Part shown: positions 844-30,626 of the stretch, in pieces
Layout: every line of letters starts with the position of its first letter
Numbering within the stretch: the stretch's first letter is position 1
NCBI GenBank assembly: GCA_029881275.1
Contig: JAOUMX010000003.1
Span: 1 to 55,744, forward strand
DNA length: 55,744 nucleotides
Origin: Gammaproteobacteria bacterium
GTDB taxonomy: Bacteria; Pseudomonadota; Gammaproteobacteria; SZUA-229
Reading direction: 5' to 3'
Position numbers and translations under genes: made by a program
The notes under the pieces: model-generated
Databases searched by the model: none
Told to the model about the DNA's origin: nothing
Seen by the model: the letters and a program-made list of their open reading frames with translations, nothing else

Positions 844-2043
844 TTAAAACAATTCAATTTCACCTTCATCCATATCAATCTGTGAACTTGTTTTGGAATG
901 CATGGATTTGGCTTCAGTTGTAATATTTTTCAGTTCAGAATTAAAATCGGCAAGGCTTTTAACCAAAAAAGCAGTATCATAATCGGCCACTGAGCGAAGA
1001 TTACTACCGGTACGCTCAACCAGATCTTTTACCAGTAACATGTGACCATCAATATGCTCACACAATTGCCTTGCTATATCTTCAAACTGAAGTGACTGAA
1101 CACCTTTAGCCACGCTCATCTCAACTTCTTTTGTTATAGTACCAATTTGCGAGAGTTTGATATCCATAAACTCATTTTGCTCATCAAGCAAAGTCAACAT
1201 ATCATCAACTCTTTTTTTATGCTGCATGGCAACACTCATATCCCTAGAAGCAATTTCGCCGACTAATTCCTTGGCTTTACTAATATTAATTTTCGATTGA
1301 TCTACAACACTACGTATTTTGTCGTTTAGCTTATTGGAACTTTGGGATAACTGACGCACTTCACTGGCTACTACAGCAAAACCACGACCTGCATCACCCG
1401 CTCGCGCAGCCTCGATTGCCGCATTCAATGCCAGTAAATTAGTCTGATTGGCAATATTACTAATATCTGTCAACAAACCATTCACGTTATCCATTTGTGT
1501 CTCAATGTCATCTACTGTATAGACCATCGTCATGCCGCCACGGCTGACTTCAGTAACAATATTAATAAAATAATCAAGAATACTTCTGGTCTCATCTATA
1601 AAGCCAGACTTCGACGTAACACTCTGTTCAACTTCATCACTTTGAGGCTTTGCATTTAGTTTACGTATAAGCTCCTGAACATGCCGTTCCTGCTCAGAGG
1701 ATAAATGAGCCATGGAAGTAAAACTGCCTGACAACAACTGCACCGCATCCAGAATAATCTCTTTAAGTCTTTCAATATTCCGAATGACATCTTCAATTTC
1801 CATGGCCAGACCGCCATAGTGGTTTTCTGATTCCTTATAAATCATCTGTAAATCAGCCGTTTTTAATTCCTCTACACTATCGAGGTTATCTTTGCTAGAT
1901 TTACGTCCTACAATGAAATAATTGATTGGCCATATAAAAGATATGATCAGAATTTCTCCCAGACCAAATTCACCTGCACCTGACATCAAACCATAGATAA
2001 TAACAGCAAAATTAATACTGATTGCCAGAATGAATTTTTTCAT
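844..2043 (-). CDS. Small methyl-accepting chemotaxis protein with a two-TM hairpin and no real periplasmic domain
   Basis: The hairpin-tip motif [34 protein letters not shown] is highly conserved. The N-terminus has two hydrophobic helices. The C-terminus ends in GEIELF. Confidence 0.9.
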
Positions 2044-2068
2044 TATCTAAAACACCATTCCCATTTTT

Positions 2069-3163
2069 TCATTCTGAAGACCGCTGACAATACTTAATAA
2101 TTTCATCAGCCACTTTATTTAATGGCACAACTTTTTCAACCGCATCTAGTTTCACTGCTGCTCCCGGCATACCCCAGACAACACTTGTTTTTTCATCCTG
2201 CGCAACATTAAATGAACCTTTACGTCTCATTTCCAGCATCCCTTTTGCACCATCAGCACCCATACCGGTCAGCATTATACCCATAGCATTAGGACCCGCA
2301 CATTCTGCCACCGAATTAAACAGTACTTCTACACTGGGCTTATGACGATTCACTTCCGGTCCATCTTCCAGCTTGCAATAATACTTGGCCCCGCTTTTTT
2401 TAATAATCAGGTGCTTGTCGCCGGGTGCAATATAAACTCTACCGGGCATAATTAAATCACCTGTTTTCGCCTGTGTCACGGTTAACTGGGTACAGTCATT
2501 TAAACGCTGCGCAAAAGGCCCACTAAAAGTAATGGGGATATGTTGTGCAACTACTATACCCGCTACATTGGGTGGCAACGCCTGCAGAACCTGTTTTACT
2601 GCCTCAGTACCTCCTGTTGAAGAACCAATGGCAATAATTTTATCCGTTGTATTCAGGAACTTATTATCTGATTGTAGTTCAGAAATTGCATGTGCGGTGG
2701 CCTGCTGGTCGGACTTGGCTCGCTCTGATGCCATTTCATATTTTCTGGCCAGAAAATCTCTGGTTACCAGAGATGCCATTTTTACTTTTTCAATAATTTC
2801 TTCACTGTATTCTTTAATAGCAACATTGACGTCCATTTTCGGTTTGGATACAAAATCAACCGCACCGAGCTCAAGCGCCTGCAAAGTTACGCCTGCACCT
2901 GCATCAGTCAATGTTGAAATCATCACCACCGGCATAGGTCTTAAGCGCATGAGATTTTTAAGAAAAGTAATGCCATCCATTTTTGGCATTTCAACATCAA
3001 GGGTAACTACATCAGGCGATAAAAGTTTAATTTTATCCCTGGCGATTAAAGGATCATTTGCCGTACCCACCACTTCAATATCAGGATCCGATGATAATAT
3101 CTCCTTTAAAACCTTTCGGATTAGCGCCGAGTCATCAACAATTAGTACTCGAATTTTACTCAT
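2069..3163 (-). CDS. cheB: Chemotaxis response regulator protein-glutamate methylesterase CheB
   Basis: An N-terminal receiver (RVLIVDDSALIRKVL..DVVTLDVEMPKMDGI) is followed by a methylesterase domain (IIAIGSSTGGTEA..MTGMGADGA..VVWGMPG). Confidence 0.95.
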   Translation of the reverse strand: MSKIRVLIVDDSALIRKVLKEILSSDPDIEVVGTANDPLIARDKIKLLSPDVVTLDVEMPKMDGITFLKNLMRLRPMPVVMISTLTDAGAGVTLQALELGAVDFVSKPKMDVNVAIKEYSEEIIEKVKMASLVTRDFLARKYEMASERAKSDQQATAHAISELQSDNKFLNTTDKIIAIGSSTGGTEAVKQVLQALPPNVAGIVVAQHIPITFSGPFAQRLNDCTQLTVTQAKTGDLIMPGRVYIAPGDKHLIIKKSGAKYYCKLEDGPEVNRHKPSVEVLFNSVAECAGPNAMGIMLTGMGADGAKGMLEMRRKGSFNVAQDEKTSVVWGMPGAAVKLDAVEKVVPLNKVADEIIKYCQRSSE

Positions 3164-3199
3164 AAAATCTGACTCGAATCATTAAATCTATTTCTGTTA

Positions 3200-3832
3200 T
3201 TAAAACAATTCTATTTCGCCTGCTACTGGTTCAACTTTCAGCTGATCCAGATACTGCACTTCACGTTTAACAATTGTATCATTGTGAAGACGTTTCAGCT
3301 TCTTCATTTTGACCTTACCCGTTTTTGGAAAATAGTTAACTTTTCGAGGGTAAATATCACCAAGATCCTGAGCTGCAATATAAAAACCTTCTGTTGACAT
3401 ATACTCAAGCACAAAATCAATATTCTTCTGACCCACATCCATACCAATAGCCATTACCTTACCGCCACCAAATAACTTGAATTCCATATTTTTTCTTTGC
3501 CCGCCATTATGCATGATGTCATTAATTAAGTGTTCCATAGCAAAGTTGCCATAACGGGCCGCATCACTGATAGACGTTACATCAATACTTCCACGATTGA
3601 CGGGTAACATAAAATGATTCATGCCACCAATACCCAGTTTCGTATCTCTGATACAGGCGGAAACACAGGAGCCAAGTACCGTGGTAACACATTCATCATT
3701 CATGGTTACATAATATTCACCGGGCAAAATCTTTGCAGCATAACAATCCTGGGTTTTATCCCAGTATCGTTTTATATGCTCATACCCTTTTAGGACAGGC
3801 GGCATTGGGGGGGGGGTATAATTGCTATACAT
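3200..3832 (-). CDS. cheD: Chemoreceptor glutamine deamidase CheD
   Basis: AAKILPGEYYVT..TVLGSCVSACIRD..GGMNHFMLP..KLFGGG is the CheD family signature. The start could instead be Met10, downstream of the C10 tract. The C-terminus ends in GEIELF. Confidence 0.9.
   Translation of the reverse strand: MYSNYTPPPMPPVLKGYEHIKRYWDKTQDCYAAKILPGEYYVTMNDECVTTVLGSCVSACIRDTKLGIGGMNHFMLPVNRGSIDVTSISDAARYGNFAMEHLINDIMHNGGQRKNMEFKLFGGGKVMAIGMDVGQKNIDFVLEYMSTEGFYIAAQDLGDIYPRKVNYFPKTGKVKMKKLKRLHNDTIVKREVQYLDQLKVEPVAGEIELF
3807..3816 (-). repeat. Homopolymeric tract: G10 on the plus strand, C10 on the cheD coding strand
   Basis: Counted directly: ..ggcattGGGGGGGGGGtata.. It encodes T-P-P-P at cheD codons 6-9. 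This is the longest G/C run I saw in the window. Confidence 0.95.
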
Positions 3833-3834
3833 AA

Positions 3835-4686
3835 TTACTTTATCTTTTTATAAACAGTTTTACCGATAGTTACAAAACGATCACTCATACCCTGTATGGA
3901 CTCAGAATGGCCTAATATCATATAGCCACCCTCCACGAGCTGATCCGCGTACCTGTTTAACAATTTAATTTTGGTTGGCTTATCGAAATAAATCACCACG
4001 TTTCGACAAAAAATAAGATGGAATTTGGTTTTAATCGGCCATTCATGCATTAAATTCACCTGCTTGAATTCAATGATATTCTGCAATTCAGGAGACACCC
4101 TGACATTACCATGATTACTGCCTTTGCCTCTAAAAAACCAGCGCCGTTTGACACTGGTTTCCAGACCCTCTACTCGTGATATCTCATAAATACCCCGTGA
4201 CGCCTTGGATAACACCGTAGTATCAATGTCAGTCGCCAGTATCGATGCCCTGGGTGCATTTTTCACACCATCAAGTCCTTCTAGCAAGGTTATAGCCATA
4301 GTGTACGGCTCTTCACCTGTCGAACAACCGGCTGACCATACCTTGATACCCTGCATAACATCATTGCGTGTACAAAGATCTGGAATAATCGTCGACTTCA
4401 TCATATCGAAATGATGTGGCTCTCTAAAAAATGACGTCAAATTCGTGGTAATAGAATCTATAAAAGGCGTAAATTCTGTTGCCATATTGGCATCCAGATA
4501 CTTTACATATTCTGCAAAACTGGCAAGACGTAACGACCGTATTCGCTTAACCAGACGTGCGTAATACATATCGTATTTATCATCCGTTACAATAATCCCG
4601 GTATGATCATTCGCTATTTTTCTTAGCTTGTTAAAATCCCGCTCTGTGAATTCATATTCCCGGGTAGTGTTTATTTTGACGGCCAT
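3835..4686 (-). CDS. cheR: Chemotaxis protein methyltransferase CheR (copy in the Che2-like operon)
   Basis: FTERDFNKLRKIANDHTGI..TNLTSFFREPHHF..VWSAGCSTGEEPYT..IFCRNVVIYFD are CheR SAM-methyltransferase motifs. Confidence 0.95.
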   Translation of the reverse strand: MAVKINTTREYEFTERDFNKLRKIANDHTGIIVTDDKYDMYYARLVKRIRSLRLASFAEYVKYLDANMATEFTPFIDSITTNLTSFFREPHHFDMMKSTIIPDLCTRNDVMQGIKVWSAGCSTGEEPYTMAITLLEGLDGVKNAPRASILATDIDTTVLSKASRGIYEISRVEGLETSVKRRWFFRGKGSNHGNVRVSPELQNIIEFKQVNLMHEWPIKTKFHLIFCRNVVIYFDKPTKIKLLNRYADQLVEGGYMILGHSESIQGMSDRFVTIGKTVYKKIK

Positions 4687-4695
4687 GTAATTCGC

Positions 4696-5280
4696 CTAAA
4701 GAGCAAGAAATTCTGTTACATTAAGCAATTTAGCTGAATCATTAATTTTAGATGATTTAGCATGCCAGCTAATTGCCTTTCCCTGTGCTCTGGCTTCTTT
4801 AATTAGAGACATCAATAACTGCAATGCAGAAGCATCAACAGTCTCGACAAGTGACGCGTCAATTTTTATGTCATCTTCTGATACAAGCATTTTACTTATT
4901 TCATCATAAACAACTTCAGCCTGAGCAATGCCAAATACATCGGGTAAATGCAACATGGACTTATCCTTTTCATCATTAAAATCAGCAATTTCTTCATCAC
5001 GGACTATTTCGACTTCGGCCTGCACATCAGACTCGTGTTGAGGTTCCTCACTCACAGATTCAACAACATCATGAACGATCACTTCTACTACAGGTTGAGT
5101 CACAACTTCTGGCTCAACAACAATATTTGAATTACTGACCACATCATCATTACCTGAAATCCAGGCCAAAGGATCATGACCTAATTTAGATTCCAGATGC
5201 AAATTATCAAAACTTTTCCTGTTTGCAGTTTTTTTAGTAGCTGTTTTTTTCTTTGCTGCCTTCTTTTTTACAACTGCCAT
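4696..5280 (-). CDS. STAS-domain protein with a lysine-rich N-terminal tail and an acidic linker
   Basis: The N-terminus is MAVVKKKAAKKKTATKKTANRK, followed by a DPLAWI motif and an acidic E/D/V-rich linker. The C-terminal STAS-like domain reads IKIDASLVETVDASALQLLMSLIKEARAQGKAISW. The start ATG overlaps the parA stop (TAATG). Confidence 0.7.
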   Translation of the reverse strand: MAVVKKKAAKKKTATKKTANRKSFDNLHLESKLGHDPLAWISGNDDVVSNSNIVVEPEVVTQPVVEVIVHDVVESVSEEPQHESDVQAEVEIVRDEEIADFNDEKDKSMLHLPDVFGIAQAEVVYDEISKMLVSEDDIKIDASLVETVDASALQLLMSLIKEARAQGKAISWHAKSSKINDSAKLLNVTEFLAL

Positions 5281-6044
5281 TAATATGTTCTCCCAATAAT
5301 CAAATCATCAACCAGTGATTCAAACTCTTTGGCCGAACGACTAGATGGCTTGTACTCAAAAATCGTCTTGCCAAAACTGGGGCTTTCAGCAAGTAAAACA
5401 GATTCTGATATTTCAGTCAGCAACATACTGTTAGCAAAATACTGCTTTAACTTTTCTTTTACCTCCTGAGCAAGCCTTCTGCGTGCCTGATAACGCCCGA
5501 GCACAATCCACTGTTTATAAGTATTACCCAATGCTTTTTCAAAATTCTTCAAGGTTGCCATCAAGTGAGACAAACCCTGCAAGGCAAGATAGTCACCGGT
5601 CATGGGTATAACGACTTCATTGACCGCAAATAACGCATTTACAACCAGCAGACCTGATGAGGGTGGACAATCAATTAAAATAAAATCGTATTTTCCTTTA
5701 ATTGTTTCCAGTGTATTTTTAAGCAACTTACCTCTAGCCACACCACCTTCTGTCTTTTCTTCAACTTCGGTCAGACCATATCCTGCGGGTACCAGTTTTA
5801 GATTTTCTCTTACCGGATAGGTTACGCTTACCAATGGCGTACCATTTAACATTGCTTTTTCAAGGCCCTCTATGTCACGTTTTATCAGACCCAGACTAGA
5901 GGTTAGCTGTCCCTGAGGATCAAGATCAATCGCCAGTACATCGTAACCTTTTCTGGCAAGGCCATGAACCAGATTTAAAGTTGTCGTCGTTTTACCAACA
6001 CCACCCTTCTGATTTAGAACTGCAATTACTCTGGTCTGTTTCAT
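5280..6044 (-). CDS. ParA/MinD-family P-loop ATPase associated with the chemosensory cluster
   Basis: It has the deviant Walker A motif VLNQKGGVGKTTTTLNL, plus DLDPQG and ILIDCPPS. At 254 aa it matches the size of the ParA/Soj family. Confidence 0.9.
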   Translation of the reverse strand: MKQTRVIAVLNQKGGVGKTTTTLNLVHGLARKGYDVLAIDLDPQGQLTSSLGLIKRDIEGLEKAMLNGTPLVSVTYPVRENLKLVPAGYGLTEVEEKTEGGVARGKLLKNTLETIKGKYDFILIDCPPSSGLLVVNALFAVNEVVIPMTGDYLALQGLSHLMATLKNFEKALGNTYKQWIVLGRYQARRRLAQEVKEKLKQYFANSMLLTEISESVLLAESPSFGKTIFEYKPSSRSAKEFESLVDDLIIGRTY

Positions 6045-6071: not shown

Positions 6072-6572
6072 TTATGATGAAATGCTTTCTAAGGCTGCAA
6101 GCTCATCCTGATCAAGAAGCTTATCTGTTTCCAGCAATACCACCATACGATTATCAACCATAACCATACCATTCATGTATCTGGTATTTATCTTGCCGCC
6201 AAAATTAGGTGCTGCCTTGATGTTTTTCCGTTCAATATTCAAAACATCCGATACTGCGTCTACTACCACGCCCATGACGTGACTACTACCGTCTTTTTCT
6301 ACGGATAGAACAATAATAACGGTTGTTGGCGTGTACTCGACTTTCTTAAGATTAAATCTGATTCTCAAATCGACGATGGGGACAACGGTATTTCTTAAAT
6401 TAAGGACACCTTTTATATAATCAGGCGTATTGGGAATATCACGCACCTCTTCCCAGCCCCTGATTTCCTGAACGCGAAGAATATTGACACCATAGTCTTC
6501 ATCACCCAGTGTGAAACTGAGAAATTGTGGCTGATCTTCGTCACGATTGATTGAATCGTCTTTTGCATTCAT
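6072..6572 (-). CDS. cheW: Chemotaxis coupling protein CheW
   Basis: FLSFTLGDEDYGVNILRVQEIRGWE..IKGVLNLRNTVVPIVDLR is a single CheW-like domain. Confidence 0.9.
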   Translation of the reverse strand: MNAKDDSINRDEDQPQFLSFTLGDEDYGVNILRVQEIRGWEEVRDIPNTPDYIKGVLNLRNTVVPIVDLRIRFNLKKVEYTPTTVIIVLSVEKDGSSHVMGVVVDAVSDVLNIERKNIKAAPNFGGKINTRYMNGMVMVDNRMVVLLETDKLLDQDELAALESISS

Positions 6573-6671: not shown

Positions 6672-9600
6672 CTAAAACTCTTCCCACTCGTCATCATCAA
6701 CTGGTGCCTGTGGTGCGGCTTTACGTGTGGTTTTCTGAGTGGGTTTTGAAGCTGCTTTCTGTACAGGAGCAGATCGTTGCGCAGGCGCACGCTGAACCTC
6801 AGGTGAATAAGAGACAGCCGCAGTCGATGCATCTACTCTAAAGAAGGATACCAGATTATTCATCTCGGTAGCTTTATGCAGAGATGATTCACTGGAGGCA
6901 GATGCTTCTTCCGCCAAGGCTGCATTTTGCTGAGTAATCTCATCCATCTGAGTTACTGCTTTATTCACCTGCTCAATACCGGCGGACTGTTCCTGTGAAG
7001 CTGCAGCAATTTCTGAAATAATATCGCCAACTTTCTTAACACTATCAACAATTTCATTCAGCGTTACACCGGACTCATTCACCAGCTTACCACCAGCTTC
7101 TACTTTTTCACCACTATCAGAAATGAGATCTTTGATTTCTTTTGCAGCTGTAGCACTTCGTTGAGCCAGATTACGAACTTCTGTTGCCACCACTGCAAAA
7201 CCACGCCCCTGTTCACCGGCACGCGCAGCTTCAACCGATGCATTCAGGGCCAGCAGATTTGTCTGGAAAGCAATCTCATCTATCACACCGATAATTTCTG
7301 CAATCTTGTTACTTGAAGCGGTAATTTCATTCATTGCTTCAACCGCCTGTTTAACCACATTACCACCTTTTTCTGCCAGGTCTCTGGCACCAGATGCCAA
7401 CTGGTTAGCCTGTACTGCATTATCGGCATTATTTTTTACCGTACTGGTCAGCTCTTCCATACTGGATGCAGTTTCTTCGAGTGTAGATGCCTGTTCTTCA
7501 GCCCGTTGTGACAAATTATTATTACCGGCTGAAATTTCCTCACTGGAGTTACGAATAAATTCACTGGACTCACGAATCTTACCAACCACTTCCTGCAATT
7601 TAGCAATGGTCGCATTGATACTGTCTTTCACTACACCATAGGTACCCGTGTAATCTTTGGTAATGCTATTCGTTAAATCACCTTTTGACATTGATTCCAT
7701 AACAAAGGCGACGTCTTCAAAACTTTCAGCAACAGTTTCAATTAATTTATTGATACCTTCTGCCAGCTGTTTGAAGAAACCTTCTTTTCCTTCCATTGAA
7801 ATACGTTGATCCAGATCACCATCACGGGCTGCCTGCACAATGCTTTCCACTTCTTTTTCAACCGCCACTTCAGCAGTACGATCAACCCATTCAACAGCAG
7901 TACCCAGACGCTCGCCCTTTTCATTAACCACAGGATTAGCAGCAAGATCAAATGTTCTACCACCAATAACCAGACGTGTTTCATAAGATGTTTTCAGAGA
8001 AGCAATTAATTGCCTCTGATGTTCAGGTTTCTTATGGAAGGAATCAAAATTAGCACCTACCAGTTTATCGGCATCAAAGTTGGGTAAGTCAGTACGAATT
8101 TCAGCCTCAGCATTTTTCATCATGCCCAGAACTGCTTTATTCATATAAATAATATCACCACGATTATCTGCCATCATGACACAGCTATTCACATTATCCA
8201 GTGCCACCTTGATACGCGCCATGTCATTACCGCGTTGACGGGTATCATTGACATCAAAGCCCATCTTGATCTGCATGACTTTAAGGGCACGCATCAGATC
8301 GCCAATTTCATCTATGCGTTTAATATTAATATTACGTGCGAAGTTACCATTAGACAGATACTCAAACTCGGTCATGGTAATACCCAGTGCACGCAATAAA
8401 TCTCGGGTCACATACCAGCTTATAAATACAGCGATCAGAAGACCCAGCAAGGCAACAACTGCTGCCTGAATCTCGGCTGCGCGTAGTACACCAATTCGTT
8501 CATGCAGTAATTCTTCCAGCAAAGGCGACACTTCATCATATAAGGCAAATGATGCTTCAATACTTTTTGTACCCTTATTAAAAAAGTCAGTTCCATCCAG
8601 TTCTGCAAACTCCTTTCTGAACAACTTTTGCATGTCTTCATCAAATACCCCAAGCGCAGTTTCTACTTTCTCGGCAACACCGGCAAGACGCCTTTCAATT
8701 GTTTTATTAGCGGCTATCGCCCCGGCCATTGATTTATTAACGCCTTCCTCGTTGATATGCGAAAAGACTTCCAGTTTATTTAACCGGTTTTCCTGGCCGT
8801 CTGCAAAACCAGCATTGTTAATAATACTTGCACCGAGACCACGTAATTGACCTGTTTTTTCAGTCAACACCGGTATGCGGTTAACCAGTATATCCATAAG
8901 ATAAAAGGTATCCAGTTCAGGATCAAGAATCAAATTTGACTGATCGGCCACATACGCAATAAAGGCAATCAGTTTTTCAAGCAGATCTGTATGACGCTTG
9001 AAACTTTCTTGCACAGTCAAATCAAAGGTTTCCGATTTAAGCGAATCCCAGTCGTTAATAATTGTTTTTAATTTATCTTCTGTATGAAATTCTTCAGCAA
9101 ACTCCTGATTATATTCCCTTAGATCATTCAAATGTTCATCAACGATTGCACGCTGGGCAATTACTTTAGATTTAAACTCTTTCTGTCCTGATAAATAAGC
9201 ATTAGCCATACCACGGTGTTTTGGCATATGTTCCATGACATCGCGTACATGATGCAGGTACTGAACACCCTGAATCTCTTTCTTCGCAAAACGAATGCCT
9301 TCCTCTTCCATGCTTATGACCGTACCCACCAGGGCAGCAGCCACGAGGAAAAACACCAGACCCGCCATTGACAATTTCTGCCAGACTTTCATTTTCTTAA
9401 ATACATTTAAGCGTTGTACAAAAGACGGCTTCAAACTGGCTTTACCTGCATTCATCTGACCATAGAGCATTTCTGCCTGAGACACCTGCTCACGGGTCGG
9501 CGGTGTACGCACTGACATATACTCTTCAACCTTGCCATTTTTCATCATCGGCGTAACATTCGCCTGAACCCAGTAGTAATCACCACTCTTGGTACGATTT

Positions 9601-9851
9601 TTTACCAGACCGACCCAGGGCTTGCCGTCTTTTATGGTATTCCATAAATCTTCAAAGGCTTCTGGCGGCATATCAGGATGACGAACCATATTATGATTCT
9701 TGCCAATCAGCTCCGCTTCGGAGAAACCACTAATCTCGATGAAATCGGGATTCACAAACGTCATAATCCCTTTCAGGTTAGTACGCGTTACAAGTAGCGT
9801 ACCTTCCTTCATTCTTACTTCATTATTGGTTACTGGTTCATTGATTCTCAT
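6672..9851 (-). CDS. Multi-sensor methyl-accepting chemotaxis protein. Domain order: Aer-type PAS, TM, NIT-like periplasmic domain, TM, HAMP, Aer2-type heme-PAS, HAMP, MA domain, C-terminal EWEEF.
   Basis: - aa 1-120: [43 protein letters not shown], which I recall as Aer FAD-PAS-like.
- Predicted TM helices lie at about aa 160-181 and 463-482.
- [12 protein letters not shown] is NIT-like.
- aa ~545-660: [33 protein letters not shown], which I recall as P. aeruginosa Aer2 heme-PAS-like.
- MA tip: [35 protein letters not shown].
- The C-terminus ends DDDEWEEF, an xWxxF pentapeptide. Confidence 0.9.
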
Positions 9852-10467: not shown

Positions 10468-12465
10468 TTAATGTCTGACCGACATACGTAATAAGCCGGG
10501 AATATCAAGGATTAACGCCACTGATCCATCACCCAGTATGGTTGCACCGGAAACACCATCAACGCGCCGATAATTTTGTTCCAGTGATTTAATAACTACC
10601 TGTTGCTGCCCCAGCAAATCATCAACAAATAAGCCACAGGGTTTTCTATCCGCCTCAACCACCACCAGCAAGCCATCTTCCAGTGTTTTTGCTTTTGCAT
10701 TTTCAATACCAAATACACGGCTCAAACGCACAATTGGAATATATTCATCACGCAATTTGAATGTTTCACCTTTACCGGCCACCTTGTTAATCATTGACGT
10801 TTTAATCTGGATAGATTCAACAATCGATACCAGTGGAATAATATAAATTTCATTACCAACAATAACTGACTGTCCATCGAGTATGGCCAGTGTTAGTGGC
10901 AAACGAATAGTGAAGGTACTGCCTTTGCCATGTTCCGACTGAATCTCAACTGCACCACCCAGGCTGGTAATATTCTTGCGTACCACATCCATACCCACAC
11001 CACGACCGGATACATCGGTGATTTTTTTCGCAGTTGAAAAACCGGGCTGAAAAATCAGGTCATTAATCTGCTGAGCAGTCAGCTTGGCACCTGCAGGCAC
11101 CAGGCCTTTTTCAATAGCCTTGTTCAAGACCGCATCCTGATCAATACCTTTACCATCATCGGTAATTTCAATGACAATATTGCCACCCTTATGATAGGCA
11201 TTTAAATTAATGGTACCGGTTTCTTTTTTACCGGCAGCAATACGATCAGCCGGCATTTCAATACCATGATCAAGACTGTTACGTACCAGATGAACCAGTG
11301 GATCACCAATTTTTTCTATTAATGTTTTATCAATCTCGGTATTTTCACCGCTCATGATGAGATCAATTTTCTTTCCCATCTGTGAACTCATATCGCGTAC
11401 CAGTCGAGGAAAACGACTAAACGAAAAACTGATAGGCAGCATGCGAATCATCATCACGCTTTCCTGCAGTTCACGGGTATGGCGTTCCAGCTGACCTAAA
11501 CCATCCTGCAACTTTTCCAGATTCTGCATGGAGAAATCTTCACCCAGCAAACTCAGCATGGATTGAGTAATAACCAGCTCACCCACCATATTGATCAGAT
11601 CATCAATCTTGTCGATGCCAACACGTATCGAACTGGTGGCCGATGATGACTGTGTTGATTTTTTACTGTCTGATGCTGTTGCGGCTACTGGTGCAACCGA
11701 TTCAGTAACTGCGGGTGCGGCACTGGTTGCTTCTGCCGCAGGCTGCACTGATGTATCAACTATCGGTGTCAGCGTTAATTTACATTCATCTTCAACCCAG
11801 AGAAAAACATCTTTAATTGCATCCTCAGTAATATTGCCACGTAGCGTAATATCCCATGACAAATAACAGTTCTCAGGTGAAAGCTCGCTAAAAGCCGGTA
11901 ATTTCTGCTGATTAGTTTTGACTTCGATATCACCCATCTCAGCCAGTTCACGAATAATGCGTAACGGGTCATTACCGGTCAGCATCATATTGGCATCCGG
12001 TTCAAAAATGATATGCCAGCCGGTTGTCTCGCTACTGGAACCGGCAGATGCTGCCTGGATAGCAGCAGCACCGCCTGATTCACCCAGAATAAACTCCAGT
12101 TCTGACATTTGTTGCTGGATTTTGTCTGTATCCGGGTTGCTTTTATCCTGCTCACAATTAAGCATCATGCGCAGGATATCAACGGATTTTAATAATGAAT
12201 CAACAGCTTCACGGGTAACCTGTCGGCGACCATCACGCATTTCATCGAGCAATGTTTCCATAACATGAGTGAAATTCGCAATGCCCTGAAAGCCAAAGGT
12301 ACCGCTCCCCCCTTTAATAGAGTGAGCCGCCCTGAAGATGGTATTGATGTCTTCACTGTTCGCAGCGCCCAGGTCAAGCTCCATAAGTCCAGTCTCCATA
12401 ATATCGAGACCTTCGAAACTTTCTTCAAAAAAAACCTGATGGAACTGTTCAAGATCCACACTCAT
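10468..12465 (-). CDS. cheA: Chemotaxis histidine kinase CheA
   Basis: It has an Hpt domain (FRAAHSIKGGSGTFGF), a dimerisation region, an HATPase domain (HLVRNSLDHGIE..DDGKGID..GRGVGMDVV) and a C-terminal CheW-like domain. Confidence 0.95.
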   Translation of the reverse strand: MSVDLEQFHQVFFEESFEGLDIMETGLMELDLGAANSEDINTIFRAAHSIKGGSGTFGFQGIANFTHVMETLLDEMRDGRRQVTREAVDSLLKSVDILRMMLNCEQDKSNPDTDKIQQQMSELEFILGESGGAAAIQAASAGSSSETTGWHIIFEPDANMMLTGNDPLRIIRELAEMGDIEVKTNQQKLPAFSELSPENCYLSWDITLRGNITEDAIKDVFLWVEDECKLTLTPIVDTSVQPAAEATSAAPAVTESVAPVAATASDSKKSTQSSSATSSIRVGIDKIDDLINMVGELVITQSMLSLLGEDFSMQNLEKLQDGLGQLERHTRELQESVMMIRMLPISFSFSRFPRLVRDMSSQMGKKIDLIMSGENTEIDKTLIEKIGDPLVHLVRNSLDHGIEMPADRIAAGKKETGTINLNAYHKGGNIVIEITDDGKGIDQDAVLNKAIEKGLVPAGAKLTAQQINDLIFQPGFSTAKKITDVSGRGVGMDVVRKNITSLGGAVEIQSEHGKGSTFTIRLPLTLAILDGQSVIVGNEIYIIPLVSIVESIQIKTSMINKVAGKGETFKLRDEYIPIVRLSRVFGIENAKAKTLEDGLLVVVEADRKPCGLFVDDLLGQQQVVIKSLEQNYRRVDGVSGATILGDGSVALILDIPGLLRMSVRH

Positions 12466-12493: not shown

Positions 12494-12856
12494 TTAACCT
12501 AAAACTTTCTTAATTGTGTTTATCAATTGATCAGGGTTAAACGGCTTAACAATCCAGCCTGTGGCTCCTGCTGCTTTTCCCTCTGATTTTTTATCAGCCG
12601 CTGATTCTGTCGTTAGCATCAACATCGGTGTAAATTTGTAATTAGCCTCAGCACGTAAATTTCTGATAAATGTAATACCATCCATTACAGGCATATTGAC
12701 ATCGGTAACTATCAGGTCAAATTGCTGACTTTTGGCTTTAGTTAGTGCATCTTGTCCATCAACAGCCTCGACGACATCATATCCGGCACCTTTTAATGTA
12801 AATGAAACCATCTGGCGCATAGATGACGAATCATCGACTGCAAGTATCTTTGGCAT
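12494..12856 (-). CDS. cheY: Chemotaxis response regulator CheY
   Basis: The 120-aa single receiver domain reads KILAVDDSSSMRQMV..DLIVTDVNMPVMDGI..MLTTE..GATGWIVKPF. Confidence 0.95.
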   Translation of the reverse strand: MPKILAVDDSSSMRQMVSFTLKGAGYDVVEAVDGQDALTKAKSQQFDLIVTDVNMPVMDGITFIRNLRAEANYKFTPMLMLTTESAADKKSEGKAAGATGWIVKPFNPDQLINTIKKVLG

Positions 12857-12954
12857 TCTTTCCCCCTCAAATTAAAACGAACGCAATTGTGCACTAGATG
12901 ATATAGACCAAATTTCATTGATATACCATTAATTAAAGTCATCAACTAATGATG

Positions 12955-12981
12955 CTATCGGCCTTTAAATTAATTTATTTA
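12955..12981 (-). promoter_or_regulatory. Candidate sigma-28 (FliA) promoter for the cheY-led chemosensory operon
   Basis: The minus strand reads TAAATAAA-N11-GCCGATAG against the consensus TAAAGTTT-N11-GCCGATAA. The -10 box matches 7/8 and the -35 box 4/8, with correct spacing. It lies ~100 nt upstream of the cheY ATG in a 222-bp AT-rich spacer. Confidence 0.45.
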
Positions 12982-13078
12982 ATTTTTTTTAAAATAATTC
13001 ATCAGTTAGATAACAATCTTCATTTACATTGTTTTCTGTAAGGTAAATTAAACACATTCAATTTCCGAAGACACTGTT

Positions 13079-14377
13079 TCAGGCATACAAATTAACACCT
13101 GAACCCGAATCCACCGACATAACCCCACTCTGAACCGTGTCAGATGACTGTTCAGTTGCTTCGTCATTCATTAGCTGGGCAACACCAGACGAAAATTTTT
13201 CTGACTGATCCTGTTGCGATTCCGAATATTGCGAAACATCCACATTACCTAGCTGCAATCCCTGCTGCTCGAACATTTCACGCAAACGGGGAAGTGCCTG
13301 ATCAAGGGCTTCGCGTACCGGAGCATGGGCAGAAATAAAACTGATACTGGCTTTATCATCATGAATCGACATTTTGATTTCTAGAGGGCCCAGATGTGCC
13401 GGGTTTAATTTAATTTCGGCATTCTGAAAATTACCCTGCACCATCCAGGCAACCCGCTCAGCCACACCCTGCGACCAGCCCGGGCTTTGTAAAGGCACTG
13501 GAATAGCACTTTTAAACAAAGGTGTATTTGCCATTAGTGCGGGGTCATTCAGACTTGCCGCTGAATTTAAATGCATTGCCGATACCGAGGTCAGACCCGG
13601 CACCTGCTGCATATGACTGGCGGTCGTGATAATTGAAGACACCGATGCGGGTTTTGCATCCAGATGAATAGCACTCTTTACGTCCTCTGATACACCTGTA
13701 ATTTTGCTTTTTAGCGTCATCAATTCCGGCGTTACGGGTGCCTCATCTGCCAGATTCAGAACCGGCGGTTGTTTTTGAGATTGTTGAAAGTCGACACTCT
13801 GTTTGTGACCCGGGATTATCTGTATTGGCCGATGGTTGTCATCAACGGCTGTATCAACCTGCTGCATGTCAACGTTTTTGACCGGCACCTCGATGACGGC
13901 ACTGACAGTAACGGGACTAATATTCGCATCACCCTCTTCCATGACAGGCGGCAAATCACTGCCATCAAACGGCAGTATTTGTTGATGATCAACAGCCACC
14001 TCCAGAGTCTGCTGGTGACGGACTTCCGTATCGACCGGCTGTAGAGTCGCTAACAACACCGCATCATCAACCTCTACAGGGGAGGACTGAACCAGCTCTT
14101 CGGAGGTAATGCCTTTGGCCACAACCGCTTCTTCCGGACAGGATTCAGTACTATCATCTACCGGTGATTCAGAACCAGAAACCTCATCAGATCGCTGATT
14201 TTTATCACTTTTTTCCGATCCCGAGACCTGCTGCGCAACATTGTCCTGATCAATTTGTTCATTCAGATGCTGATCAAAGGATTTGCTGTCCTCTGTTTTA
14301 CTGGCAACATCAGCATGCCGTGGACTGGTTGACGGGGCGGTATCAATTGGCGGGCGATTAAGCGAGCTTATATCCAT
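13079..14377 (-). CDS. fliK: Flagellar hook-length control protein FliK
   Basis: It lies directly after fliJ. The N-terminal two-thirds is disordered and rich in Q, P and acidic residues. The C-terminal domain (NAEIKLNPAHLGPLEIKMSI..ASISFISAHAPVREALDQALPRLREMF) matches the FliK C-terminal pattern. Confidence 0.8.
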   Translation of the reverse strand: MDISSLNRPPIDTAPSTSPRHADVASKTEDSKSFDQHLNEQIDQDNVAQQVSGSEKSDKNQRSDEVSGSESPVDDSTESCPEEAVVAKGITSEELVQSSPVEVDDAVLLATLQPVDTEVRHQQTLEVAVDHQQILPFDGSDLPPVMEEGDANISPVTVSAVIEVPVKNVDMQQVDTAVDDNHRPIQIIPGHKQSVDFQQSQKQPPVLNLADEAPVTPELMTLKSKITGVSEDVKSAIHLDAKPASVSSIITTASHMQQVPGLTSVSAMHLNSAASLNDPALMANTPLFKSAIPVPLQSPGWSQGVAERVAWMVQGNFQNAEIKLNPAHLGPLEIKMSIHDDKASISFISAHAPVREALDQALPRLREMFEQQGLQLGNVDVSQYSESQQDQSEKFSSGVAQLMNDEATEQSSDTVQSGVMSVDSGSGVNLYA

Positions 14378-16913: not shown

Positions 16914-17936
16914 TTAAACATACTCTTCTCCACTTCCACCCAGGGAAATATCGCCATCGTCCGCCAGACGTCGTGCAGTGGCCAGAATTTCTTTCTGAGC
17001 CGCTTCAGCATCCGCCAGTCGAACAGGGCCTCGGACTTCGAGATCTTCCTGTAACATCTGCGAGGCACGCTTGGACATGTTTTTAAAGATTTTTTCTTTA
17101 ATGGCAACATCCGCCGCTTTTAATGCCAGGGTCAGGGTTTCAGTTGAAATTTCACGTAAGATAACCTGGATTCCACGATCATCAATTTCCGCCAGATTAT
17201 CAAATACAAACATCATATCCCTGATGCCTTCCGACATTTCAGAATCATATTCTGAAATATTATCCAGAATGGCCGACTCATCGGATGAATCCATGAAGTT
17301 AAGAATATTTGCTGCCGCCCTTAAACCACCCATAGAGGATTGCGCCACATTGGATGATGAACCGGAAAACTGTTTTTCCATAATACTGTCCAGTTCACGC
17401 AAGGCCGATGGCGGAATACCATCAAGTGCAGCAACCCGCATCATAATATCGGGACGCGCACGTTCAGGTAAGAATTTAACCACATCGGCCGACTGGTCCG
17501 GATCCAGATAGGACAGCACAATGGCAATAATTTGCGGATGTTCCAGGCGAATAAGTTCAGCCACCGCTCTCGGATCCATCCACTTTAACGCTTCCAGACC
17601 TTTGTTACCCGTACCCATAAGAATACGGTCAATCATGCTTTTAGCTTTATCTTCACCCAGCGCATTAACCATCATGTCACGGATATAGTCATCGGCACCT
17701 ATGCCCATGCTGGTCTGGTTGTGGACACCGCCAACAAAATCTTCCATGACTATGTCCATCTGTTTTTTGGTAATGTGCTGCATAGCAGCCATGGCAACAC
17801 CAATCACCTGCACTTCCTTGGGACTGAGATGTTTAAGAATAGCCGCTGCTTTATCCGATCCAATAGATAACAACAGAACCGCCGCACGCTCCACACCTGT
17901 GAGAAGTTCAGATGGTTTATTTTTATCCACGGACAA
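16914..17936 (-). CDS. fliG: Flagellar motor switch protein FliG
   Basis: GVERAAVLLLSIG..EHPQIIAIVLSYL..MFVFDNL and the C-terminal torque-helix region are typical of FliG. The protein is 340 aa. Confidence 0.95.
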   Translation of the reverse strand: MSVDKNKPSELLTGVERAAVLLLSIGSDKAAAILKHLSPKEVQVIGVAMAAMQHITKKQMDIVMEDFVGGVHNQTSMGIGADDYIRDMMVNALGEDKAKSMIDRILMGTGNKGLEALKWMDPRAVAELIRLEHPQIIAIVLSYLDPDQSADVVKFLPERARPDIMMRVAALDGIPPSALRELDSIMEKQFSGSSSNVAQSSMGGLRAAANILNFMDSSDESAILDNISEYDSEMSEGIRDMMFVFDNLAEIDDRGIQVILREISTETLTLALKAADVAIKEKIFKNMSKRASQMLQEDLEVRGPVRLADAEAAQKEILATARRLADDGDISLGGSGEEYV

Positions 17937-17953
17937 TCCTGCTTCTACTTTGA

Positions 17954-19555
17954 TTAAGTTTCATTGGCAACCCATTCTTTTACAACATTGGCAACTCGAC
18001 CGGGATCATGATCAACCATGGCTTTGGCAAAATCGACATTATCATCCTGACCCGACGGCATCTTAACCCGTTCCTGATGCTCCAGTTGACCCACCGCAGC
18101 ACCACCTTCACCCTCTCCAGCCGGTAGCATCGGTGTTGGCGGCTGATAAGTTGCTAAATTCTTTACCGTCGGTTTAAACACGGCAAAGATAAGTACCAGT
18201 ATTATAATACCGACCAACAGCTGTTTCCCAAGATTCTGTATCCAGGGCTGTTCCAGCAATGTTTGCTCAGGCAGTTCTTCAACTACCTCGGCTTCAGCAA
18301 ACGAGACATTAATAATATTTACCTGATCACCACGTTCCTGATTAAAACCAATGGTCTGCTGAACCAGTGTGGTAATGCGTTTCAGTTCTTCATCGGTTAA
18401 AGGTATCCGTTCAACGGCACCGGTCTTGGATGTTTTTGTATGATCATCAACCAGCACACCCACGGTTAAACGCTGGATGCTGCCAACCCCCTGACGGGTA
18501 TGACGAATGGTACGATCCAGTTCATAATTTCGTACCGCATTCTTGCTGCTGTTCAAGGCTTTCTGACCACTGCCCGCCATTTCATCAACACCACCGGCAC
18601 CGGGTACCAGTACACCACTTTCAGGTGGCTGATTGCTTAAAGCACCGGGAATACCACCAGCATCCTGAGCGCCAAAATTAGCGGTTTCGCTGGACTGTTC
18701 ACTGCGTATAGACTGACGCTGGGGATTAAAGGTTTCCTCAGTACTTTCCTGTTCAGTAAAATCGATATCCGCATTTACCGTTGAACGCACTTTACCCATA
18801 CCCACGATGGGTTCAAGCAAACGCTCGATACGTTTTGCATAATCGGATTCCAGTTGACGACGGTATTCATATTGCTTGGCAGTCATAGCCACATTTCCGT
18901 CATTATCACCAGACGATAACAAACGACCGGTTTGATCGACAACCGTCACCTTATCCACTGACAAATGCGAAATACTCGACGCCACCATATGAATAATGGC
19001 ATTAATCTGTTCCTGATCAATGGTACGTCCACCGTAAAGAGACAACGCCACTGACGCACTGGGTTCTTCCCGGCTACGCACAAATACGGAACGTTTGGGA
19101 ATCGCCAAATGCACACGTGCAGATTTCACATTTTGCATCGTACTAATGGTTCGTGCCAGTTCGGTTTCCATCGCATGATGATAACGAGCGCTTTCTACAA
19201 ACTGTGACGTTCCAAAACTTTGTTCTTCCTGCAAAATTTCTATGCCAATACCCGTTCCTTTTGGCAGACCCTGAGCCGCCAGTTTCAAACGGGCTTCATG
19301 AATCAGATTGGGTGGCACCATTACGGCACCCGTTGACGCATCCAGTTTATGGGGTATAGCCGCTGCCTGTAACGCCGCCACCACCTCAGTAACATCGCGT
19401 GCTTCAAGCCCGCTGTATAAAGACGTGTAATCAGGTTTTGCTGCCCACATAGCTAACCAGATAGCTAATGCAATACTGGCCGCCAGCCCTACCAGCAAGC
19501 CAACCTGCCTGGGGATAGGTAGAGATGAAAAACCGTAAGATGCTGATACTGACAT
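17954..19555 (-). CDS. fliF: Flagellar MS-ring protein FliF
   Basis: The protein is 533 aa, with an N-terminal TM helix, LYSGLEARDVTEVVAALQAAAIPHKL, and a C-terminal TM helix. Confidence 0.95.
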   Translation of the reverse strand: MSVSASYGFSSLPIPRQVGLLVGLAASIALAIWLAMWAAKPDYTSLYSGLEARDVTEVVAALQAAAIPHKLDASTGAVMVPPNLIHEARLKLAAQGLPKGTGIGIEILQEEQSFGTSQFVESARYHHAMETELARTISTMQNVKSARVHLAIPKRSVFVRSREEPSASVALSLYGGRTIDQEQINAIIHMVASSISHLSVDKVTVVDQTGRLLSSGDNDGNVAMTAKQYEYRRQLESDYAKRIERLLEPIVGMGKVRSTVNADIDFTEQESTEETFNPQRQSIRSEQSSETANFGAQDAGGIPGALSNQPPESGVLVPGAGGVDEMAGSGQKALNSSKNAVRNYELDRTIRHTRQGVGSIQRLTVGVLVDDHTKTSKTGAVERIPLTDEELKRITTLVQQTIGFNQERGDQVNIINVSFAEAEVVEELPEQTLLEQPWIQNLGKQLLVGIIILVLIFAVFKPTVKNLATYQPPTPMLPAGEGEGGAAVGQLEHQERVKMPSGQDDNVDFAKAMVDHDPGRVANVVKEWVANET

Positions 19556-19669
19556 TTTTATTAACCTTCACAATAATTCTAAAAACCGGTCAGAAGTTGT
19601 ATGCAATAAATCATAAGTCTCGGCTTTTTTTTGCTTTTAACTTACAACGTTTAACTTAAGGCTTATAAC

Positions 19670-19999
19670 CTAAACAGGCATATTCATGACGTCCTGATAG
19701 GCTGATAACAATCGATTACGTACCTGTGTCATTGCCTGAAAAGAGACACTGGCTTTTTCCATGGTAATCATTAACTGGGCAACACTGACATTGGGATCGC
19801 CTTTTTCAAATGCTTCCGCCATTTTAGTGGATGCCTGAGATGCTTCATTAACTGCATCAATAGAACTTTTTAACACATTTGAAAAATCAGCTTTCTGCAC
19901 GCCATTTTCAATAGTATTAATGGCCGTGGGCCTGGCGGCTGCCTGTGCTTCCATGACTCGCATTTGCGACAATAATTGCTGAACATTCATATTCGACAT
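19670..19999 (-). CDS. fliE: Flagellar hook-basal body protein FliE
   Basis: FSNVLKSSIDAVNEASQ..SVAQLMITMEKASVSFQAMTQVRNRLLSAYQDVMNMPV is FliE-like. I prefer the ATG at 19999, which has a GAGAGGTGAG Shine-Dalgarno sequence, over the TTG at 20023 used by the ORF track. Confidence 0.85.
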   Translation of the reverse strand: MSNMNVQQLLSQMRVMEAQAAARPTAINTIENGVQKADFSNVLKSSIDAVNEASQASTKMAEAFEKGDPNVSVAQLMITMEKASVSFQAMTQVRNRLLSAYQDVMNMPV

Positions 20000-27966: not shown

Positions 27967-30528
27967 TTACTGAAGCAGACTCAATACCAGCTGTGGTAAT
28001 GAGTTAGCCTGTGCCAGCATGGCGACACCGGCCTGCTGCAGTATCTGCGTACGGGTCAGATTAGCTGTTTCAGCCGCAAAGTCTGTATCTTGAATTCGAC
28101 TACGTGCAGCGCTCAGGTTTTCTATGGTACGTGTCAGGTTTGAAACCGTGGTTTCAAATCGGTTCTGTACCGCACCCAGATCCGCACGAATTTCATCGAT
28201 TCGAGCCAAAGCACCGTCAGCAATATCGATAGCTGCATTAGCACCGGTTACTGAACTGATATCAATCGAATCAACTGTCTGGTTTTCACTGGCCTGCAGT
28301 TCATTAGCCTCACCATCAAACAAACCACCTGCAGTTTGTGCAATTGATGAATCTACACTGAAGTAACCACCATTTGATTTAAACTCAATTGAACCACCCA
28401 CAACAGTTGAATCTCTGTTATCAGCATTACCACCACCTGCTTCCAGACGAGTGGCTGGGCCTGTTGCACCCGTAACATCAAGAGTCACAGGGGGATTACC
28501 CAGACCATCTATAGCATTTGAACTATCAAAATTTAATATAGATATATTCTCACCGGTGTCATGTGTCAGGGTAATTGAAGCACCATCAAGACTCAGCTCA
28601 GCATTAACGCCGGTTTGACCTGAACGATCATTAATCGCCTCAGCAAGTGAGGATAAATCACCCGTTGTCACATTAGCCGAAATATCAGTACCATTTAAGT
28701 TAAATGAAACTACACCATCCAGGCTTAAATTAGACAATGTTGCTGTAGTAGTAGCCGTTGCCAGTACACCGGTGGAATCAGCCACTGCATTAATCTGTGC
28801 CACGATGCTTTCAGCATCTGCATTAGCCGACACATCGACTGTTGCAGTTACTTCACCGTTGATAGTCAGCGTTTGTGTCGCAACATTATTACCATTATCA
28901 ATATTCGCTTCACCAAAACCAGTTACCGTTGCAGCGGTACCTGCGGTTGCGATATCAAAAACACCACCATTGTTATTATTCAAACTTGAAGAAATGGTAT
29001 AACCTGCATCTAAAATAACTTCAATGGCTGCTATAGCTGTACCACTATCACCACCTGCTGCACTTTCACCAATCGCTGTGCCACCAAAATTGATATTTGA
29101 ACTAGCAACAGCAGCTGTAAATACTGCAGTATCAGTACCATTATCACCTAACAGACTTGCATCACCCGTAGTCTGAGCTGTGCTGCTATCATAAGCAATA
29201 ACATTTACAGTTGCATTTGTATCAGTTGGGTCATTAAGGAAAACTGTAGTAGTAGCTGCAGGCGTATCTGTATATGCAATTACACCTGTACCATCCGCTG
29301 TCAGTGAGGCAGTCACGTTAGCATTACCATCCAATGCTGACTGGAAAGCTGCTGCAACAGCAGCCTGATCAGTTACATCTACTGCAGATAAATCCAAAGT
29401 TACAAGATTACCACCGAAGCTGATCTGTACACCGGCTTCTGCTTCAAAACCTGCAAAAGTGTCAATCTGAATTGCACTATTATCAGTCACCAAGAAGTCT
29501 TCAATACCAATGTTTGTACCATCCGCATTAGAAATAGTTACCACGCCTGCTGAAGATACAGTTGCTTCATGTGTTGTATTACTTGTGGCCCTGGCATTAA
29601 TTTCTGCAGCCAGCTGATCCTCAAAGTTGGCATAGGTAATTGAATCACGATTAAATGATATCGCATCAGCCGTACCTGTATTGGTTGTAAGATTGAATGT
29701 CACCAGATCGCCATGGTTAACGCCAGCTGTTGCTGACACATCAATATCCACACTATTGGATGTTGGTGCTGATGCAGAAACACCAGTTAAATTCAAACCA
29801 TCAATCGCTGCTGCCAATGTAGCGCCTGTAGCATCTGCAATTGCAGCAAGACTGGCTGATTGCGTATTACCTTCAGCATCTGTCGCAGTAATTGTTTGTA
29901 GCAATGTTGCACCGGAATATGCTGCTGATGCATTAATCACCTGAGCATAAGATACAAAATCACTATTAGTCGCATTTGAAATACCCAACACTTCATTATT
30001 GGTTGAAACTTTATTAATACCCAGAACATCAGCAGTTGCACCAGATACATTTACATTAATGGTCTGATTGGCTTCTGCACCCACCTGGAAGGTCTGTGAT
30101 GTAAATGAACCATCCAGCAGTTTCAGGCTGTTGAATGATGTGGTATTCGCAATACGATCTAACTCGGAAATCAGCTGGTTAACCTCAGACTGTAATGACA
30201 GACGGTCAGTTGCAGAGTTAGTCGAGTTAGCAGACTGGATGGCCAGCTCACGAACACGCTGCAGAATGTTGGTTGATTCCTGTAATGCACCTTCAGCGGT
30301 TTGCGCTAATGAAATCGCGTCATTCGCATTTCGTGCTGCCTGTGTCAGGCCTCGAATCTGAGACGTGAAACGGTTTGAAATCGCCAGGCCCGCAGCGTCA
30401 TCTTTAGAGCTGTTGATTCGCAGACCGGATGATAGACGTTGTAATGACGTCTGTAATTCACCCTGGCTACGGCCCAGGTTACGTTGAGCATTCAAAGATG
30501 CAAAGTTGGTATTAATGACTTGAGGCAT
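27967..30528 (-). CDS. fliC: Giant flagellin (853 aa from the preferred start)
   Basis: It has the conserved N-terminus [45 protein letters not shown] and C-terminus [55 protein letters not shown]. About 580 aa of central sequence is rich in T, A, N, S and G. The ATG at 30528 has an AGGAGA Shine-Dalgarno sequence. The ORF-track start at 30561 adds 11 aa. Confidence 0.95.
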
Positions 30529-30626
30529 AGCCTTTCTCCTGTTCTTCAGCCGCTTAACCAAGTCGACTGAAGTTACGACTTGTTTGTGGCGAAATTAACG
30601 TAAAGTTAGTTGTTCTTTCAGTGAAT

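Follow-up and report, generated by a model that had tools for sequence, protein, structure and literature searches.

To our knowledge, only two ParA-based systems for the placement of chemoreceptor arrays have been described, ParC–ParP and PpfA–TlpT. Here we report a gene pair that is probably a third, previously undescribed way of positioning such an array: parA, encoding a ParA-type ATPase, and the gene directly downstream of it, encoding a 194-amino-acid (aa) protein in which a short conserved peptide near the N-terminus, G-x-DPLAW (the tag), is joined by a linker to a C-terminal STAS domain. The pair lies in a chemosensory operon of a gammaproteobacterium (GTDB lineage SZUA-229), on a stretch of 55,744 nucleotides (nt) that we call the window (NCBI GenBank assembly GCA_029881275.1, contig JAOUMX010000003.1, positions 1 to 55,744). 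In the ParC–ParP system of Vibrio and Pseudomonas, a ParA-like gene is followed by an adaptor gene within the che cluster, and the adaptor is modular: an N-terminal region for interaction with the ATPase is followed by a flexible linker and, at the C-terminus, by the domain that binds the array (PMC5706961). The window pair shares this gene order and this layout; it differs in that the domain in the array-binding place is STAS_2 and not CheW-like (AIF) as in ParP, in that the linker is acidic rather than proline-rich, and in that the cluster is of class F7 rather than F6. In PpfA–TlpT of Rhodobacter sphaeroides the ParA-like ATPase is also encoded inside a che operon, and its partner is summarised as making contact by an N-terminal peptide (PMC5706961). 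The window ATPase resembles PpfA in having a putative DNA-binding Arg of the Soj type, and two related loci (L083 and L093) carry the tag on the N-terminus of the receptor itself, by the same logic. Unlike the TlpT peptide, the window tag stands on a separate STAS protein and not on the receptor, the window receptor is predicted to be membrane-bound rather than part of a cytoplasmic cluster, and its system is of the stage-1 F7 class.

The STAS protein encoded 5' of cheY in stage-1 F7 clusters (PMC7184735) belongs to the same STAS subfamily as the window protein and has a complementary distribution; unlike it, the window protein carries an N-terminal tag and a linker, and sits after ParA, not before cheY. 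CheS of Sinorhizobium meliloti, a STAS protein that binds CheA, provides a precedent for an array-associated STAS module, being a single STAS domain from a che operon (PMC12654446); unlike the window protein it has neither a ParA nor an N-terminal tag and is alphaproteobacterial, and the comparison made with it is one of fold. MlaB is the best match to the STAS domain in both sequence and structure, and is itself a STAS_2 protein that regulates an ATPase, MlaF; the score, however, is 24 bits against a family cut-off of 90, MlaF is an ATP-binding cassette ATPase and not a ParA, and no Mla genes lie nearby.

No description of a STAS–ParA pair appeared in full-text literature searches (STAS, ParA, chemosensory, Aer2, cheD), in the F7 evolution paper with its supplements, or in reviews of ParA/MinD ATPases; the F7 evolution paper makes no mention of ParA (PMC7184735). 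A 2026 survey of Vibrionales reports only ParC, in F6 clusters, and a survey of Geobacter che genes mentions neither ParA nor STAS. A first-pass annotation of this DNA, made from the sequence alone, had known of no STAS-domain adaptor for array positioning, and the literature searched here describes none. For Methylotuvimicrobium alcaliphilum 20Z, the published locus tags leave only five genes between the Aer2-like and McpA-like receptors (PMC7184735 supplement), so that the pair may or may not be present there; the gene numbering in M. methanica MC09 would fit the pair. What is new in the pair is thus the adaptor domain, the conserved tag and the class of cluster, ParA-based positioning of arrays being already known.

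We consider it likely that parA and the tagged STAS gene encode a ParA-type module dedicated to positioning the F7 (Aer2-type) array. Open reading frames (ORFs), Pfam matches, composition and an AlphaFold2 model bear out the parts that the first-pass annotation had read here: a 254-aa ParA with the motif KGGVGKTT between cheW and cheR; a stop codon that overlaps the next start as TAATG (plus-strand positions 5278–5282); and a 194-aa protein with a basic N-terminus, a DPLAWI motif, an acidic disordered linker and a C-terminal STAS domain. Both are conserved genes and not chance ORFs: more than 120 ParA homologues share at least 52% identity with the window ATPase, the STAS protein has 38 close homologues, and an exhaustive hidden Markov model (HMM) search of 1.84 billion representatives recovered 1301 STAS-protein clusters at E ≤ 1e-10.

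The pairing is strict. In a survey that started from the STAS protein, a scan of species-representative genomes gave six loci and a metagenome scan confirmed 235, from which we retained 80; the scan used a 12-sequence alignment, which replaced a 51-sequence one too diverse for the purpose, and loci were annotated by tblastn with the window's twelve proteins. The loci are mostly metagenomic, and the one control for phylogenetic independence was to remove near-identical sequences. Starting from the motif, wherever more than 900 nt preceded a motif-bearing ORF we found a ParA homologue ending directly upstream of it (76 of 76), and the sole two motif-bearing ORFs without an upstream ParA have no upstream DNA there. 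Starting from ParA, the motif gene was directly downstream in all five look-ups (P0136, P0108, P0130, P0149 and P0106; 52–57% identity), one of them in the complete genome of Methylomonas sp. LL1. Among 80 non-redundant junctions the two genes overlap by 1 or 4 nt in 63, and in 76 no nucleotide lies between them (gap ≤ 0 nt). Each cluster examined had exactly one tag and one ParA, and in about 90 loci of diverse lineages the pair is found at one and the same place within the F7 cluster. The pairing of ParA with the tagged gene is therefore not due to chance, and the co-occurrence that the first-pass annotation had put forward as a test held from both directions.

Conservation within the partner is concentrated in the tag, whose consensus is [IL]-G-[FHY]-D-P-L-A-W-[MLI] with acidic residues next. 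G34, D36, P37, L38 and W40 of the window protein are invariant in 51 diverse homologues, a conservation above that of the STAS domain itself, and DP[LIMV]x[WFY] occurs near the N-terminus in 132 of the 150 best matches of the exhaustive search. The protein as a whole diverges fast, with identities of 23–60% for the STAS partner against 45–92% for ParA. The first-pass annotation had stressed the positively charged N-terminal peptide and mentioned the DPLAWI motif only in passing; an N-terminal peptide stands, with the emphasis reversed. Among 210 distinct motif-bearing proteins, the number of Lys and Arg residues before the motif spans 0 to more than 10, with none in 20 proteins, one or two in 68 and three or more in 122, so that 88 have at most two; across homologues the pre-motif tail is 3 to 53 aa long, and the STAS protein of Methylomonas sp. 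LL1, which begins MSENDDNSLIGYDPLAWM, exemplifies a tail poor in Lys and Arg. Part of the 210-protein set was gathered by the motif pattern, so that motif frequencies are circular there; this touches neither the statistics on the tail nor the HMM-based set. From these alignments, the conserved element is G-x-DPLAW and the lysine tail a lineage-specific elaboration.

A protein search with the motif alone returned 22 candidates, none scoring, as 10 residues are too few for a significant match among 5.8 billion sequences. We dropped 36 unconfirmed LGHDPLAW matches from the genome scan as candidates for other architectures, since chance alone would produce about 70 matches to a pattern of 34 bits in some 1.2e12 positions. 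The idea that the tag mimics the ParB N-terminus (GLGRGLxALL) was unsupported: a tag profile run against all PDB chains gave only a chance match, to a light-harvesting protein.

The tag moves between STAS and receptor proteins, in three architectures. Most loci, the window included, encode tag–linker–STAS. In a second group, with parA and the partner gene ahead of a globin-coupled Aer2-like receptor, the arrangement is tag–globin–STAS; this subgroup comprises L010 (5632–6546), L020 (6269–7354) and about 15 further loci, and the next gene encodes a globin–PAS–HAMP receptor ending in a methyl-accepting chemotaxis protein (MCP) signalling domain. In at least two separate loci (L083 and L093/L094) the tag is on the N-terminus of the Aer2-like receptor itself, as tag–globin–PAS–HAMP–MCP, and the tagged receptor starts about 180–190 nt after ParA. 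The L083 receptor, of 971 aa, begins MANSKKSAIGYDPLAWM and ends DDEWEEF; that of L093/L094 begins MATKKQKLGFDPLAWM. L078, where the locus is cut off, probably carries the receptor-tagged form too. L078, L083 and L093 have a STAS protein of 92–120 aa, without the motif, 5' of cheY, and these 5' proteins match the window STAS domain, at 1e-9 to 1e-11, and not the 101-aa second STAS of the window. Conversely, none of the 18 tag–STAS clusters with enough upstream DNA has a 5' STAS. Loci with the tag on the receptor and a motif-less 5' STAS thus point to the tag as the ParA-specific element and to the STAS domain as a fixed part of ancestral F7 systems; read from sequence, the peptide acts like a ParA tag that can be carried from one protein to another. 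Together with the co-occurrence and the conserved coupling, the move of the N-terminal peptide onto the Aer2-like receptor favours the earlier proposal that this ParA has its cognate partner or adaptor for the Aer2-type array in the STAS protein. As separate observations, the receptor-tagged form looks like the product of a deletion between two globin domains, and in the L093 cluster, where the receptor is globin-coupled as well as ParA-tagged, the F7 CheA (831 aa; 1231–3726, also L094 156–2651) has a globin domain between its Hpt and dimerisation domains.

By motifs and profiles, the ATPase belongs to the Soj-like branch of the ParA/MinD ATPases. Its Pfam matches are AAA_31 (2e-47; 161.8 bits against a cut-off of 27), CbiA (77.9 bits) and ParA, and its best solved relatives, matched over the full length at E of about 1e-43 (HMMER), are 8RAY, a 'ParA family protein', and Thermus thermophilus Soj (1WCV). 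The first Arg of its Arg cluster aligns with an Arg of 8RAY that we take to be the equivalent of Bacillus subtilis Soj R189, a non-specific DNA-binding residue; the R-R-[RK] cluster is retained in 29 diverse members of the ParA clade, and the window ParA may bind DNA. A hydrophobicity scan of the C-terminus (...LVDDLIIGRTY) gave no hydrophobic segment, with no sign of a C-terminal amphipathic membrane helix of the MinD type.

In the partner, Pfam gave only STAS_2/STAS (STAS_2 at aa 110–187, 2.9e-12, over the cut-off), with no CheW (PF01584) match at E ≤ 0.01 and no helix-turn-helix (HTH) or ParB domain. AlphaFold2, from a 26-sequence alignment, modelled a confident STAS fold at aa 107–190 (predicted local distance difference test score, pLDDT, >90) and left aa 1–104 disordered except for a one-turn helix at the motif (aa 39–42). 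Foldseek placed TM1442 and MlaB nearest to the STAS domain (TM-score about 0.7), with RsbV and SpoIIAA also matched.

In the mechanism that we propose, ParA would act as a Soj-like ATP-dependent dimer, probably on the nucleoid and possibly at a polar landmark; the nucleoid is suggested as its matrix because of the Soj-like Arg cluster. The 194-aa protein would be the cargo adaptor, its C-terminal STAS domain associating with the F7 signalling complex, so that the array would display many copies of the tag on acidic flexible linkers of about 65 aa. The tag would dock onto ParA and probably stimulate its ATPase, with arrays being placed, partitioned and inherited as the outcome; docking with ATPase stimulation would follow a general rule for partners of ParA/MinD ATPases (PMC10241942). 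The Lys-rich tail, added before the tag in the window lineage, may strengthen ATPase stimulation or contact with DNA.

Several points weigh against this proposal. The pre-motif segment has zero or negative net charge in 79 of the 210 proteins (38%), and stimulation by a Lys/Arg finger therefore cannot be universal. The profile search of PDB chains found no detectable similarity between the tag and any solved partner peptide, ParB N-termini included. The survey covered F7 clusters that have a ParA, and for the others an absence of the tag is a prediction. Finally, the receptor has two predicted transmembrane segments, which would make the cargo membrane-bound; a polar tether like that of ParC would therefore fit as well as, or better than, nucleoid partitioning like that of PpfA. 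Such a tether, held by a landmark of the HubP/FimV type and with the tagged STAS protein in the role of ParP, is a variant of the positioning module with another matrix, and we regard it as a tentative option. Besides the transmembrane segments, it draws on electron cryotomography (cryo-ET), in which F7 arrays are membrane-associated and often polar (PMC7184735), and on the adjoining polar-flagellum genes; it sits less well with a STAS partner that lacks a CheW-like AIF domain and with the Soj-type Arg cluster retained in ParA, and we identified no landmark protein in this analysis.

The other explanations depart further from array positioning. One is that the STAS protein is mainly part of a partner switch, an anti-sigma-factor antagonist acting with the CrsR/HsbR-like response regulator–PP2C–kinase at the end of the cluster, while ParA would only sequester or release it as an ATP-dependent switch like FlhG, with no positioning. 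The domain has the right fold, and stage-1 F7 clusters are tied to RpoS partner switches (PMC7184735; PMC9855816). An anti-sigma-factor antagonist would also have a phosphorylatable Ser or Thr after the conserved Asp, however, and this the 194-aa protein lacks. In SpoIIAA and RsbV the phosphorylated Ser comes directly after the Asp (D57-S58 in SpoIIAA); the window protein has Ala there, and the family varies between Thr (51 of 89 aligned members), Ala (19) and Gly (16). A phospho-regulated antagonist role is possible, on sequence, for the Thr-bearing relatives, but for the 194-aa protein a partner-switch role is not favoured because of the Ala, and a separate STAS with a canonical D-S-S motif lies beside the response regulator–PP2C. 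Moreover, the tag may sit on the receptor instead of the STAS protein, and its presence there in some loci ties the ParA contact to the array rather than to the switch. The link between this STAS domain and partner switching that the first-pass annotation had raised would fit the other STAS protein of the operon better, and we judge the explanation improbable. It is less probable still that G-x-DPLAW binds another partner, such as CheR, CheB or CheA, in the manner of xWxxF pentapeptides, with the adjacency to ParA a matter of operon history. Short aromatic motifs do serve as CheR/CheB tethers in the same cluster (the EWEEF and EIELF tails), and the commonest arrangement puts the STAS partner between ParA and CheR; yet in type-2 clusters the gene after the tagged one encodes the receptor and not CheR, with ParA still directly before, the start–stop overlap with ParA is conserved, and tag and ParA come one to one in the clusters. 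We give next to no credence to a ParA of the common DNA-partitioning kind, served by an unusual stand-in for ParB and placed in a che operon by chance: the nearest solved relatives are indeed chromosomal Soj/ParA proteins, but the partner has no DNA-binding or ParB-like domain, the pair is embedded at one F7 position across so many loci and lineages, and no repeat or parS-like feature was seen, none having been looked for.

From 12856 down to the window start, the genes are tightly packed and run in one direction (minus strand; Table 1), in the order cheY-cheA-cheW-aer2-cheW-parA-STAS-cheR-cheD-cheB-mcpA-STAS-response regulator. Gene set and order agree with the description of stage-1 F7 clusters (Ortega et al. 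2020, PMC7184735) save for two differences: no STAS gene lies 5' of cheY, because fliK occupies that place, and parA and the tagged STAS gene are inserted between the second cheW and cheR. The Aer2-like receptor is laid out as PAS, transmembrane segment, a loop of about 270 aa, transmembrane segment, HAMP, heme-type PAS, HAMP and MCP signalling domain, with strongly hydrophobic segments at aa 156–183 and 453–486. Its second PAS is closely like the heme-PAS of Pseudomonas aeruginosa Aer2 (sequence in the PMC7184735 supplement), with FHKKPEHQR against FHKNPAHQR and VEWVDRT against VQWTDRT, and its C-terminus, DDDEWEEF, fits the tether pattern x[HFYW]xx[HFYW]. On this likeness the receptor is of the Aer2 type, with heme binding predicted, and the earlier assignment of the operon to an Aer2-type array is borne out by the PAS and the EWEEF end. 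The second STAS and the response regulator, also reported in the first-pass annotation, are both present; homologous loci encode a 575-aa REC–SpoIIE–HATPase_c_2 protein at the place of the regulator, and the two genes make up the output module, of CrsA/CrsR or HsbA/HsbR type, that stage-1 F7 clusters carry.

Table 1. Coordinates in the window of the ParA–STAS pair, its parts and the cluster genes discussed in the text.
Feature	Position	Strand	Basis
ParA/Soj-type deviant Walker A ATPase, 254 aa, begins MKQTRVIAVLNQKGGVGKTT	5280–6044	minus	ORF; Pfam; solved relatives
Deviant Walker A KGGVGKTT, aa 13–20; signature Lys13, P-loop Lys18	5985–6008	minus	sequence
Walker A' AIDLDPQG, aa 38–45	5910–5933	minus	sequence
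Walker B FILIDCPP, aa 121–128	5661–5684	minus	sequence
Arg cluster QARRRLA, aa 186–192	5469–5489	minus	first Arg aligns with 8RAY Arg (HMMER)
TAATG junction; ParA stop overlaps STAS start by 1 nt	5278–5282	minus	reads ...TAT TAA TGG...
Tagged STAS protein (putative adaptor), 194 aa, begins MAVVKKKAAKKKTATKKTANRK, contains KLGHDPLAWI	4696–5280	minus	ORF, Pfam, homologues, AlphaFold2
Lys-rich N-terminal tail, aa 1–31; 10 Lys/Arg, 2 Asp/Glu	5188–5280	minus	composition
Motif KLGHDPLAWI, aa 32–41; proposed ParA-binding tag	5158–5187	minus	conservation
Acidic disordered linker, aa 42–106; 20 Asp/Glu, 2 Lys/Arg	4963–5157	minus	composition; pLDDT <50 at aa 58–104
STAS_2 domain, aa 107–194; Ala at canonical phospho-Ser position (VD-A-SALQ)	4699–4962	minus	Pfam, AlphaFold2, Foldseek
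Aer2-like receptor, 1059 aa, likely cargo	6672–9851	minus	Pfam; PAS sequence likeness; hydrophobic segments
Second of two CheW proteins; its gene directly precedes parA	6072–6572	minus	Pfam CheW 7e-37
CheR, directly downstream of the 194-aa STAS protein	3835–4686	minus	ORF; tblastn matches; Pfam CheR_N/CheR on homologous genes
Second STAS, 101 aa, canonical LDSSALG	517–822	minus	Pfam; alignment
Response-regulator receiver, RR(-PP2C), runs off window start	1–~474	minus	Pfam

Some features of these clusters stand apart from the pair. CheD (3200–3832) and the McpA-like receptor (844–2043) share the C-terminal hexapeptide GEIELF (...VAGEIELF and ...DEGEIELF); a tether motif of the receptor type is unusual on CheD and might bring CheR or CheB to it. 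The annotation of Methylomonas sp. LL1 divides the Aer2-like receptor (L007, 7402–9350) between two genes that overlap, one for a 124-aa PAS protein and one for a 529-aa HAMP–MCP protein, which reflects either a real split or a frameshift. In a Chromatiales metagenome-assembled genome (L012), an additional ORF of 192 aa, without a Pfam match, separates the tagged STAS gene from cheR (11290–11868), and a further PAS histidine kinase and a third STAS follow the response regulator–PP2C (17918–19844).

Control of the flagellum is not ascribed to stage-1 F7 systems. In the window (region 12856–14377) the F7 cluster begins about 220 nt downstream of fliK, in the same direction as the fliE–fliK flagellar genes, and the adjacency of fliK and cheY recurs in L010 (518–2193). 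The window also encodes a very large flagellin of 864 aa with a Flagellin_IN motif (27967–30561) and, adjoining it, a 791-aa protein, probably FlgL-like, whose N- and C-terminal parts match flagellin more weakly (30991–33366); the sizes of these proteins suggest a filament of the giant-flagellin type. Beyond the flagellar genes, on the opposite strand, lies a soluble-looking 446-aa MCP with a C-terminal zinc-binding CZB domain (45935–47275, plus strand).

What ancestral F7 (Aer2) systems and their STAS genes do has yet to be settled (PMC7184735); the pair reported here would add a third type of adaptor and give the orphan F7 STAS protein a role. The peptide, short and very well conserved, lends itself to direct tests as a ParA tag. 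The pair has at least one cultured host with a complete genome, Methylomonas sp. LL1, and the same methanotroph order includes a species whose F7 arrays have been imaged by cryo-ET, which makes deletion, localisation and peptide-swap work practical. More speculatively, G-x-DPLAW may be a portable address for a dedicated ParA clade, moved among STAS, globin–STAS and Aer2 receptor proteins, with the STAS domain, until now the unexplained 5' anti-sigma antagonist of ancestral F7 systems, a structural subunit of the F7 array; by analogy with STAS proteins that bind GHKL anti-sigma kinases, it might bind the GHKL domain of CheA. If so, the placement of the array, the sensing of oxygen or heme and the RpoS partner-switch output would be physically coupled.

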